From NCBI GenBank assembly GCA_934149515.1, contig CAKPFD010000005.1:696-64695 (forward strand): 64,000 bases of DNA, read 5' to 3'. The position numbers were made by a program, and so were the translations under genes. This DNA comes from an uncultured Bacilli bacterium (GTDB taxonomy: Bacteria; Bacillota_I; Bacilli_A; RF39; UBA660). This document shows positions 59,252 to 59,439 of the stretch, piece after piece. The notes under the pieces were generated by a model. It was not told the origin of the DNA. It made no database searches and saw nothing but the letters and a program-made list of their open reading frames with translations. Positions within the stretch are counted from its first letter, which is position 1. Each line of letters opens with the position of its first letter.

Positions 59252-59439
59252 TTGAAAAACATCATCATTCATGTTATGATCTATCTAGAAAGATAGAATA
59301 GGTAGGTGTTTGATATGATGGTATTTTCTTCTATTAACCAAAAGTTAACCTGGGGGGGGGGTACTTTAATCAAGCAATCTATCTATTTTTCTTTTACCAC
59401 AAAAAAATGATCAGGATATAAATGTATTCTGGTCTTTTT
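59252..59439 (+). promoter_or_regulatory. Conserved leader, copy L3: promoter, 31-codon sORF with G10 tract, intrinsic terminator
   Basis: ttgaaa-17 nt-tatgat (59252-59280). RBS aggtaggtg. sORF at 59315-59410. G10 tract at 59352-59361. Stem gatcagga / ttctggtc (two G-U pairs) plus T5 at 59409-59439. The sORF stop TGA (59408-59410) overlaps the first stem bases. Confidence 0.6.
59315..59410 (+). CDS. Leader sORF L3 (MMVFSSINQKLTWGGGTLIKQSIYFSFTTKK)
   Basis: See the leader feature above. The frame after the G tract (GTLIKQSIYF) resembles the +1G frame of L1 (GALIKHFIFY). Confidence 0.4.
   Translation: MMVFSSINQKLTWGGGTLIKQSIYFSFTTKK

Follow-up and report, generated by a model that had tools for sequence, protein, structure and literature searches.

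A small leader upstream of gene B, a DUF6273 surface-protein gene of an uncultured gut bacterium, is most likely a random on/off switch, and we lean somewhat toward the view that it works as a slipped-strand, phase-variable leader-peptide transcription attenuator. In the window (the whole stretch of DNA analysed, 64,000 nucleotides), the promoter, RBS, sORF, G10 tract and terminator of this leader were all read from the sequence at the positions given by the initial annotation, and they are listed here in order together with the neighboring elements:

59189–59232, + strand: terminator of the upstream RNase J gene (assigned from Pfam families), a hairpin at 59189–59223 (−12.3 kcal/mol, z = −3.1) and then TTTTTCTTT
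59252–59280, + strand: sigma-70-type promoter TTGAAA-17-TATGAT with a TG extension, 10/12 consensus matches
59288–59395, + strand: P1, a long imperfect hairpin (−37.4 kcal/mol, z = −5.1)
59300–59308, + strand: Shine-Dalgarno (SD) sequence of the sORF, AGGTAGGTG, 6 nt upstream of the ATG at 59315
59315–59410, + strand: leader sORF, 31 codons when the tract is G10, product MMVFSSINQKLTWGGGTLIKQSIYFSFTTKK and then the stop
59352–59361, + strand: homopolymeric G10 tract, the putative hypermutable element
59367–59369, + strand: TAA stop of the G9/G12 frame (short peptide ending in WGGVL), 39 nt before the hairpin
59409–59439, + strand: intrinsic terminator T, with a hairpin at 59409–59434 (11 pairs, 4-nt loop) and T5 at 59435–59439
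59419–59421, + strand: TAA stop of the G8/G11 frame, within the terminator loop (distance −13 nt)
59460–59465, + strand: SD of gene B (AAGGAG)
59475–61514, + strand: gene B, a DUF6273 surface/secreted protein with an N-terminal signal anchor ending in GVSYAAFS

The RNase J terminator insulates the transcription unit of the leader. Sequences that match the promoter consensus this well are no commoner in the region than expected (30 observed vs 36 expected), and the promoter at 59252–59280, from which transcription is predicted to start at about 59287, is credible because it is placed directly after the RNase J terminator hairpin. It is the sole strong + strand candidate between that terminator and gene B, and a homolog of the leader in a rabbit-gut MAG has TTGAAA-17-TATAAT, also with a TG. 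A second candidate between T and gene B, TTTACC-18-TATAAA, is weak and was rejected, since it is without the conserved final T and is missing from the related leaders L055 and L053a. No conserved promoter was found between terminator and ATG in gene B, in gene A (downstream of another leader copy, below) or in their relatives. Terminator T has a predicted energy of −12 kcal/mol (z = −5.4) and an A-run on its upstream side, and since its tail ends only about 35–40 nt before the gene B ATG, gene B requires read-through; the gap is similar for gene A and the relatives. The tract lies outside the promoter spacer, beginning 72 nt downstream of the −10 hexamer.

The initial annotation had called a G10 run unexpected in so AT-rich a genome, and the counts bear this out: at a GC content of 30.7%, only 0.06 G runs of at least 8 are expected in the window. 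The 64 kb hold just three G runs of at least 6 and no C run of at least 6, and all three long G runs (10802–10810, 45637–45646 and 59352–59361) fall in copies of one leader, the leader of gene B being copy 2 and the other two being the following:

10740–10884, + strand: leader copy 1 (c1, type I), 81% identical to copy 2, with an sORF at 10765–10818 (MKVFSIVNLKLTWGGVL and then the stop), G9 at 10802–10810 and a terminator at 10851–10879
45527–45710, + strand: leader copy 3 (c3, type II, without P1), upstream of gene A (45746–47818), with an sORF at 45543–45665, an interrupted tract GGGAGGGGGG at 45637–45646 and a weak terminator at 45685–45709

Copy 1 is located upstream of a truncated DUF285 fragment (ORF 10904–11269). 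In all leader copies, the ATG of the sORF follows an SD-like stretch of purines.

The tract of the gene B leader varies in length, being G10 in four assemblies, G9 in five and G8 in two. Compared with the window, one contig (L002) shows a single mismatch and a single gap over 5.9 kb, and four others (L061–L064) show 27 mismatches and one gap over 4 kb, the gap in each case being the tract. As the contigs with G8, G9 or G10 are 99.3–99.97% identical over 4–6 kb, in which no indel other than the tract occurs, we conclude that its length is truly polymorphic between strains. This comparison of metagenome contigs from different strains agrees with the earlier suggestion that the tract is a substrate for slippage. 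Other strains have an uninterrupted G9 or G10 at the copy 3 locus, giving G9, G10 or interrupted alleles at gene A; a G8 tract occurs in the L052/L058 paralog, and for copy 1 all six assemblies seen show G9.

Tract length determines where the sORF ends. With G10 the reading frame runs in silico to the TGA at 59408–59410, which shares the first two bases of the terminator stem (a stop-to-hairpin distance of −2 nt), just as the initial annotation described. That annotation also held that any slip of one nucleotide would move the stop upstream, which is right for G9, whose frame ends at 59367–59369, and wrong for G11, whose frame is identical to that of G8 and ends downstream, in the hairpin loop at 59419–59421; two of the three frames at this leader reach the terminator. 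The early stop of the G9 frame recurs in c1, in L059 and in the L061–L064 alleles, and the division between far-upstream and hairpin-adjacent stops is common to c1, L059 and the type II leaders. In each tract-bearing leader, one frame ends 32–39 nt ahead of the hairpin, and one or more end inside it or within 5 nt of it, with a tract-to-hairpin spacing of 37–47 nt throughout, rabbit homolog included. Two points here count against an attenuator: at the gene A locus, nine of ten alleles are in the frame that stops 19 nt short of the terminator, and in a single AT-rich leader an open stretch of 16 codons in two frames out of three has a chance probability of only roughly 0.1.

These features suggest the following scheme, in which we infer translation of the sORF, termination at the hairpin, control by ribosome position and switching within populations. 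Transcription from the promoter at 59252–59280 would have to get past the terminator at 59409–59439 to express gene B. A ribosome loading on the SD and AUG of the sORF during RNA synthesis would translate toward the terminator, and the length of the G tract would set its reading frame and thereby its stopping point. With G9 (also G12), the ribosome would halt 39 nt short of the hairpin, which would then form, and transcription would end (low or OFF). With G10, the state in the window, it would stop at the foot of the stem, and with G8 or G11 within the loop; in both ON states it would cover the 5′ arm and block the hairpin, and RNA polymerase would continue into gene B. Replication slippage at the G run would move lineages from state to state. 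Folding of five leaders with the 5′ arm of P1 blocked still yielded T and gave no trp-like antiterminator, nor any 2:3-type alternative of the mutually exclusive trp/his kind; with no such fold predicted, the simplest route past T is direct occlusion.

Several observations count against such an attenuator. The type II terminators are weak (−7.6 to −9 kcal/mol with a U3–U4 tail, compared with −11 to −14 kcal/mol and a U5–6 tail in type I), copy 1 is invariably G9, and the peptide sequence is not conserved. In addition, P1, at −37 kcal/mol, buries the SD and AUG of the sORF and should thus hinder the very translation that the attenuator needs. RNA polymerase of Bacillus subtilis tends to outrun the ribosomes, which disfavors ribosome-coupled attenuation in Bacilli, though a streptococcal precedent (below) shows that it is possible.

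In four leader groups with unrelated 5′ parts (c1/c2, L059, L055 and type II), the sORF has no stop between its SD-ATG and the tract, over 16–36 codons in which the other frames hold up to nine stops; the fractions of shuffles without an in-frame stop were 0.09, 0.29, 0.05 and 0.39, with a product of ~5e-4, and leader indels upstream of the tract preserve the frame. The peptide itself is without purifying selection, with about nine non-synonymous versus two synonymous differences among type II alleles, and a type I toxin or functional small protein was rejected, the peptide being neither hydrophobic nor conserved in sequence. A fusion joining the sORF to gene B by read-through was likewise rejected, as stops are present in every frame: all three frames end by 59421, which places the tract outside the frame of gene B itself. 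The G8 frame of copy 1 runs on without a stop into the ORF at 10904, and the copy 1 tract formally counts as lying within a coding sequence.

An explanation that we regard as unlikely is that the sORF and tract are the stranded 5′ end of an ancestral contingency gene, left in the 5′ UTR once the structural gene had gained its own SD and start; the tract would still slip, its length would have no regulatory effect, and the terminator would be leaky or otherwise overcome. The rabbit-gut MAG homolog (L011/L012) speaks for such an origin, as there the same 19-mer and tract belong to the start of the protein's coding sequence (MNKKLTWGG...), and G8 keeps them in frame. It was the only true match in a scan of genome contigs with AAAGTTARCCTGGGNGGGG, the other five being high-GC chance matches; the same pattern gave no true homolog in a JGI metagenome scan, protein and DNA searches of viral contigs gave no match, and an nhmmer profile of the leader detected no additional copy in the 426 kb searched. 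Also in line with a stranded 5′ end are the interrupted or 'locked' tracts in c3, L043 and L055, a stranded polyG remnant at L053 4020–4130, the unvarying tract of copy 1 ahead of a truncated DUF285 fragment, and the lack of conservation of the peptide. Against these stands the survival of the order SD-ATG-ORF-tract-hairpin-SD-gene in leaders that are otherwise almost fully diverged, with the ORF before the tract open against expectation and uninterrupted G9–G10 runs persisting in several paralogs of a genome of 31% GC. A terminator between a promoter and its sole gene is, moreover, hard to retain without function.

The hairpins of the leader were examined for conservation as well. Across eight leaders, 96% of the cells of T pair, compared with 43–51% in register-shifted controls, and four of its ten pairs are changed on both sides. 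The covariation proposed in the initial annotation as a check was thereby found for T, with compensatory changes, and not for the base of P1, which RNAalifold missed when six leaders were aligned with MAFFT, the register of pairing differing from one 5′ arm to another; P1 was accordingly judged by per-sequence folds, shuffles and strand asymmetry. On the 5′ arm of P1 lie the sORF's SD and AUG with its opening codons; a pyrimidine-rich anti-SD tail lies on the 3′ arm along with the G tract. The predicted folding energy of this segment is −37.4 kcal/mol for the + strand versus −14.5 for the − strand, an asymmetry from which we take it to be rich in G·U pairs. The same hairpin also occurs in c1, L055, L053a, L056 and L059, and in six leaders of type I the P1 fold is both significant (z −2.7 to −5.1) and specific to one strand; the type II leaders c3 and L052 have no significant P1 (z about −0.5) and retain ORF, tract and hairpin. 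This long SD-sequestering hairpin had been overlooked in the initial annotation. [quoted passage not shown]

Equally overlooked were relatives that have no tract and keep the pairing but not the length of the ORF. P1 and T are kept in both L053, whose ORF of 27 codons ends in the terminator, and L056, whose ORF has only 10 codons, and since ORF length is not kept with them, what is conserved, at least in these tract-less leaders, is the RNA structure and not translation as far as the terminator. Homologous leaders that conserve pairing without a reading frame had been named beforehand as evidence against a translation-coupled switch; the tract-less relatives partly fit that description, with the sORF remaining open in the tract-bearing leaders.

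Such leaders raise the rather improbable alternative that P1 and T are together a functional RNA unit, of which the ORF and SD-like arm are by-products and the tract merely part of a stem, serving as a target for an antiterminator or RNA-binding protein, as an RNase III site, as a 5′ stabilizer, or as a ~150-nt small RNA with read-through. The strand specificity of P1 in those six leaders of type I, where the minus strand folds far less stably, is what would be expected of a structured RNA, as are the differing 5′ arms that pair with one conserved 3′ arm, the locally compensating apical hairpins by which L053a and L056 keep P1 and T despite loss of the ORF, the degenerate tract of L055 (GAGGAGAGG), which still pairs with UUCCUC, and a 13-nt core nearly without synonymous variation. 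Yet the type II leaders (c3, L052) keep ORF, tract and hairpin without a significant P1, every copy has an ATG with a properly spaced SD, and no pairing alternative to T is available that a ligand or protein could obviously toggle. A change of one G in either direction hardly alters P1, and the maintenance of uninterrupted tracts is therefore left unexplained by a structured RNA. No Rfam family matched: at gathering thresholds, Rfam 15 found none in the window except one tRNA, and a permissive search of 59180–59480 returned only noise (E above 1).

Two further explanations concern the tract itself. It is very unlikely that its rare GGG glycine codons act by ribosome stalling, frameshifting or RNA polymerase slippage rather than through changes in DNA: WGGG is indeed encoded by TGG GGG GGG GG, and G9–G10 runs could favor slippage at the RNA or ribosome level, but the length differences are seen directly in the DNA, there is no antiterminator for stalling to favor, and the downstream genes are unrelated to glycine. 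That the lengths are homopolymer sequencing or assembly errors and not true polymorphism is hardly credible, for although homopolymers are error-prone and the lengths come from consensus metagenome assemblies, they recur in independent assemblies made with different assemblers in different studies (four cases of G10, four of G9 within the L061 lineage and two of G8) and follow strain lineages set by flanking SNPs, copy 1 is G9 in six of six, and the three tracts on one contig all occupy the homologous leader position.

The phase-variable attenuator is not an undescribed regulatory class, as the initial annotation had supposed. In the pil1 and pil3 loci of Streptococcus gallolyticus, variation of repeat number in a leader ORF, together with ribosome relief of a premature terminator, was experimentally shown (Danne 2014, PMC3894217): stops at least 28 nt upstream of the hairpin give low expression, stops immediately before, within or beyond it give high expression, and mutations of the ATG and of stop codons, as well as deletion of the terminator, confirmed this. 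The leader ORF, SSR, terminator and shifting stop of the pil1/pil3 type are all found here in silico. As there, a promoter, an SD-ATG leader ORF with an SSR, a stem-loop terminator, an RBS and a surface-structure gene follow one another in the same order, repeat changes shift the frame between stops far upstream (28–39 nt or more) and stops adjoining, inside or beyond the hairpin, and repeat number varies between strains of a Gram-positive, gut-associated member of the Bacilli. The two differ in that a G homopolymer changing in 1-nt steps gives three frame states here, whereas pil1/pil3 use GCAGA pentamers; they share no sequence homology, and DUF6273 proteins with SipW-type signals take the place of sortase pili. 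The type I leaders, moreover, carry a long SD-sequestering hairpin that is undescribed for pil1, and attenuation in them is a prediction from sequence. A translation-coupled, phase-variable attenuator thus stays the best-supported reading of the leader, with the direction of slippage partly corrected and a precedent supplied.

Other systems share single elements of this arrangement. At E. coli rph-pyrE, the distance from stop to terminator sets read-through, and the rph-1 frameshift and stop-moving deletions alter pyrE (PMC2784333). Unlike at the window leader, the input there is UTP-dependent polymerase pausing, the frameshift is a laboratory mutation and no hypermutable tract is involved. 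The ribosome-coupled attenuation of pyrBI is grouped with rph-pyrE. In Clostridioides difficile cwpV, a heritable change in 5′ leader DNA decides whether a terminator forms, by site-specific inversion, and in Helicobacter pylori tlpB a variable leader G repeat tunes expression through pairing with the trans sRNA RepG; neither is known to employ a leader peptide. The contingency loci of Neisseria, Haemophilus, Campylobacter and Helicobacter resemble the leader in having slipped-strand poly-G near the start of a surface-protein frame. The rabbit homolog is contingency-like in this sense, and shares with the window leader the core AAAGTTAACCTGGGGGGGG and the peptide start KLTWGG; the window tract, unlike those of contingency loci, lies outside the structural gene, gene B having its own SD and ATG after the terminator. 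In Moraxella catarrhalis uspA1, a poly-G lies upstream of the ORF and differences of one G alter the mRNA level (PMC7302503). This gene is not reported to have the leader-ORF/terminator logic of the window leader, belongs to a Gram-negative organism and is not homologous.

The window leader is therefore most likely a good new example of a proven kind of switch, not a new principle. What is new is its homopolymer form, the strand-specific hairpin that buries the SD, and the rabbit relative with the tract inside the 5′ coding region of the protein. We tentatively suggest, as one possible history, that the leaders form a family of modular 5′ cassettes whose ancestor was a poly-G contingency tract in frame with the protein, followed by a hairpin in the coding start as in the rabbit MAG, and which became a stand-alone switch with three ribosome end points (an off state and two on states, at the foot of the terminator and in its loop), in which the SD-sequestering hairpin limits leader translation to a co-transcriptional window, and that they were swapped between paralogous surface-protein genes, adding stochastic switching to DGR-type hypervariation of the same protein. 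The claim that gene B is DGR-diversified has one point in its favor, a VR-like match in this DUF6273 gene to a TR-like 66-mer, and one against it, in that no reverse transcriptase gene was found in the window.

If the attenuator is real, then repeat-in-leader-peptide attenuation, shown once for the pili of S. gallolyticus, would have arisen independently in an uncultured lineage of AT-rich human-gut Bacilli, with the homopolymer as a simpler version of the strategy. The rabbit homolog marks a plausible path from a contingency tract in a coding region to a transcriptional switch, and the SD-burying P1 bears on how ribosome-coupled attenuation could operate in Firmicutes, where the coupling of translation to transcription is considered loose. 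Tract length modulo 3, taken with the distance from stop to hairpin, would then predict the expression state of DUF6273 genes from metagenomes, a prediction that would cover the abundant DGR-associated DUF6273 surface proteins.

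Re-reading the leader of gene B (59252-59439, copy 2 hereafter) recovered every element that the initial annotation had described there, and these elements are listed below together with the flanking genes.

Parts of the gene B leader and its surroundings
57531-59183, RNase J gene, upstream of the leader
59189-59223, the RNase J gene's own terminator
59252-59280, TG-extended promoter TTGAAA-17-TATGAT (sequence)
59300-59308, SD AGGTAGGTG of the small ORF (sORF) (sequence)
ATG 59315 to TGA 59408-59410, sORF, peptide MMVFSSINQKLTWGGGTLIKQSIYFSFTTKK (translation)
59352-59361, G10 run (sequence)
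59409-59434, hairpin of the intrinsic terminator T, then T5 (-12 kcal/mol, z = -5.4; folding)
59475-61514, gene B, with a good SD

The sORF stop codon shares the first two stem bases of the terminator hairpin. Since the RNase J gene has a terminator of its own and gene B starts 35 nt past the T run, the 59252 promoter is the only plausible origin of gene B transcripts, which must therefore cross the hairpin.

The G run had been called highly unexpected, and its rarity was borne out: in the window, whose GC content is 30.7%, an 8-G run is expected 0.06 times. Only three G runs of at least six occur (and no C run of that length), all of them in copies of one leader. Of the 11 assemblies covering the gene B locus, four carry G10, five G9 and two G8; the window is apparently the same contig as L001. 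Over 5.9 kb, a single mismatch and a single gap distinguish contig L002 (G9) from the window, and for the L061-L064 lineage the figures are 26-27 mismatches and one gap over 3.4-4 kb, the gap being the tract in both comparisons. At the gene A locus, the window and five assemblies share GGGAGGGGGG, two assemblies have G9, and TTGGAGGGGGG and G10 were each seen once. The tract is polymorphic in length between strains, and we infer that it also switches within a population.

The leader behaves like a modular 5' cassette common to several surface-protein genes. Copy 1 (10740-10884, G9), 81% identical to copy 2, stands before a truncated DUF285/BspA-type ORF, and copy 3 (45527-45710, tract GGGAGGGGGG) before gene A, a paralog 80-88% identical to gene B. 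Both genes encode DUF6273 proteins with N-terminal signal anchors ending ..GVSYAAFS, from a family with >5,000 relatives in public data. Their carrier is an uncultured bacterium of the human gut, and related proteins from metagenome-assembled genomes (MAGs) carry the NCBI label 'Clostridium sp.'. Leaders with a long hairpin, P1, were termed type I (copies 1 and 2 among them) and those lacking it type II (such as copy 3). Among contigs from other assemblies, a type II copy with G8 precedes a third paralog, in the same Hadza sample and in another sample (L052, L058), and L059 has, at another locus, a G9-bearing type I copy whose 5' part is entirely different. The tract of one copy has degenerated to GAGGAGAGG (L055), two copies from a related species have no tract (L053, L056/L057), and one paralog has no leader (L054).

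Further arrangements were observed. In L007 and L008 (2274-2664), a copy-2-type leader with G8 precedes a different paralog (MNRKKIIWIGMLILVFCVILGISYAYLS...). In L060 (2854-3195, compared with window 59184-61593) and five similar contigs, RNase J is followed by a 288-aa polysaccharide deacetylase gene, with neither gene B nor leader; thus, cassette and gene together constitute a presence/absence polymorphism. At 4020-4344 in L053, an isolated polyG relic (G9, without an in-frame start codon) and a terminator lie 280 nt upstream of another paralog; the start of the L053 paralog at 4337-6205 overlaps a called 34-aa ORF (4240-4344).

The sORF peptide is not conserved, as type II alleles show ~9 non-synonymous versus 2 synonymous differences, and copies 1 and 2 differ by an 8-nt indel that scrambles their frames downstream of the tract. 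Judging from the reading frames, it is translation itself, unlike the peptide, that seems to have been conserved. All leaders with a tract carry an SD-like run together with an ATG whose frame is that of the TGG at the start of the tract. This frame stays open for 16-36 codons even though the 5' parts share neither sequence nor length, and up to 9 stops occur in the remaining frames. Upon shuffling of the non-homologous parts only, the probability of encountering no stop was 0.09 for L059, 0.29 for L055, 0.05 for type II and 0.39 for copy 1, with a joint value of ~5e-4 (a product that assumes the four to be independent). We then varied the tract length in silico and recorded the position of the stop.

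Distance (nt) from stop to first stem base of T, by tract length
Copy 2: G9, +39 (far upstream); G10, -2; G8/G11, -13 (loop)
Copy 1: G9, +32 (far upstream); G10, -12; G8/G11, open through hairpin into ORF 10904
L059: G9, +39, and G10, +31 (far upstream); G8/G11, -13
Type II: G8, +36 (far upstream); G10, +5 (adjacent); G9, +19 (other)

The tract lies 37-47 nt from the hairpin in all leaders, and at the gene B locus two of the three frames would put the ribosome onto the hairpin. It had been proposed that a slip of one base in either direction moves the stop upstream, which holds for -1 but not for +1, where the in-silico stop reaches the loop. In copy 1 (window 10765-11269), the G8/G11 frame is stop-free through the terminator and in frame with the DUF285 fragment ORF (10904-11269), mimicking the fused arrangement of a rabbit-gut MAG described below; every assembly covering copy 1 has G9, which yields the short peptide.

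In an alignment of T from eight leaders, 96% of cells pair, with changes on both sides in 4 of 10 pairs, compared to 43-51% in register-shifted controls. Type I hairpins carry a U5-U6 tail and fold at -11 to -14 kcal/mol (that of L056 is weaker), and type II terminators are weak (-7.6 to -9 kcal/mol, U3-U4 tails).

The initial annotation did not recognise a described regulatory class here, but the class was described by Danne et al. 2014 (PMC3894217). In Streptococcus gallolyticus pil1/pil3, a promoter is followed by a leader-peptide ORF in which GCAGA repeats predominate, then by a premature stem-loop terminator and the pilA RBS; in-frame repeat numbers place the peptide stop 39 nt before the hairpin, with low expression, whereas after out-of-frame changes the peptide is longer, its stop lies in the hairpin or shortly past it, and expression is high (PMC3894217). 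In natural isolates, stops at least 28 nt upstream go with low expression and those immediately upstream of or through the hairpin with high expression, and results with ATG mutants, added stop codons and a deleted terminator support the view that the ribosome destabilises the terminator (PMC3894217). The leader studied here matches this system in its parts, in their order and in its predicted stop distances, and differs in its homopolymer, lack of sequence homology, other cargo genes and extra P1 hairpin. Read-through is also governed by stop-codon distance in rph-pyrE (PMC2784333), and a poly-G tract upstream of the ORF alters the mRNA level of Moraxella catarrhalis uspA1 (PMC7302503); a full-text literature search turned up the leader-peptide version in no organism besides S. 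gallolyticus. A slipped-strand, translation-coupled attenuator, as initially proposed, is the most likely mechanism, and we hold it with moderate confidence. Transcripts of gene B would start at the 59252 promoter and meet T before the gene, and tract length would set the frame and hence whether the ribosome stops far upstream of the hairpin or on it.

The sole match in the genome collection was a rabbit-gut 'uncultured Bacilli bacterium', whose MAG CANROU01 (L011, L012) harbors three paralogous DUF6273 genes with an identical promoter and 5' end: TTGAAA-17-TATAAT, SD, ATG AAC AAA AAG TTA ACC TGG, then G9. A 19-mer is identical between these genes and the window's leaders. With G8, the frame would read on into a DUF6273-type protein of 452 aa that has a similar type of signal anchor, and as assembled (G9) all three copies are out of frame, stopping after 12 codons; by its sequence, the rabbit tract is a classical coding-region contingency tract. 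At ~37 nt past the tract, the signal-peptide coding part contains a hairpin (-8.2 kcal/mol) and then AGUAUUUUU; an automated scan passed over this hairpin and flagged a second one slightly downstream. There is a hint that the translated-through hairpin is older than the split arrangement. The leader sORF and its tract could accordingly be read as the neutral remnant of a contingency tract that once lay in a coding region, an explanation that we find unlikely.

A 13-nt core before the tract, AAAGTTAACCTGG (window 59342-59354, 10792-10804 and 45627-45639; L012 2729), is nearly the same in the human-gut leaders and in the rabbit coding sequence, amid diverged surroundings, the only variants seen being AAG to AAA, ACC to GCC and ACC to ACA. 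In four Spirochaetales-like contigs (L009, L025, L034, L035), whose GC content is very different, this 19-mer (AAAGTTARCCTGGGGGGGG) recurs immediately ahead of sequence coding for a signal peptide, perhaps by coincidence or as a convergent contingency tract.

An element absent from the initial annotation is P1 (59288-59395), the long hairpin into which type I leader RNA folds. Its purine-rich 5' arm holds the sORF SD, AUG and first codons, and its 3' arm the G tract and a pyrimidine-rich tail. Against shuffles, z was -3.0 for copy 1, -5.1 for copy 2, -3.6 for L055, -2.7 for L053a and -5.1 for L056; type II leaders showed no P1-like structure in the same folding (z ~-0.5). P1 is far more stable than its reverse complement (e.g. 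-37.4 vs -14.5 kcal/mol), indicating that its pairing is G.U-rich and RNA-strand-specific, and the different 5' arm of L059 pairs perfectly with the same 3' arm. With the 5' arm of P1 blocked, T stayed intact in 5/5 folded leaders, which argues that there is no trp-like antiterminator. The leader could instead be a structured RNA in which the ORF is incidental, a reading that is doubtful, though RNA pairing kept without the reading frame, named at the outset as evidence against the attenuator, was found in part: the tract-less L053 and L056 retain P1 and T without the ORF, which spans 27 codons in L053, ending in the terminator arm, and only 10 in L056. It is mainly for this reason that our confidence in the attenuator is not higher. 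Codon- or RNA-level effects of slippage seem very improbable, and an artefact is hardly credible, since equal tract lengths recur across independent assemblies and track flanking SNP lineages.

In the neighbourhood of these genes, the A-rich 66-mer 47926-47991, which directly follows the 3' end of gene A, resembles 47665-47730 in A and 60611-60676 in B, with 10/20 and 8/12 mismatches, respectively, on its adenines. The pattern is DGR-like, though not a clean one, and the window has no ORF for a reverse transcriptase (49349-50335 is HrcA). The gene A leader is directly preceded, at 42699-45334, by coding sequence for a hybrid histidine kinase (HisKA, HATPase, REC) together with an Hpt-like/REC protein, a pair in which no output domain was recognised and which could possibly regulate gene A. 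In L052, an intergenic palindrome after polC (4601-4614, CCCCCCGGGGGGGG), a second unusual G/C homopolymer pair in this AT-rich genome, is unrelated to the leader.

If true, the attenuator would be a second, independently evolved instance of repeat-in-leader-peptide attenuation, its new aspects being a homopolymer, an SD-sequestering hairpin and a visible evolutionary intermediate, and it would link this mode of control to DGR-associated surface proteins of uncultured gut bacteria.
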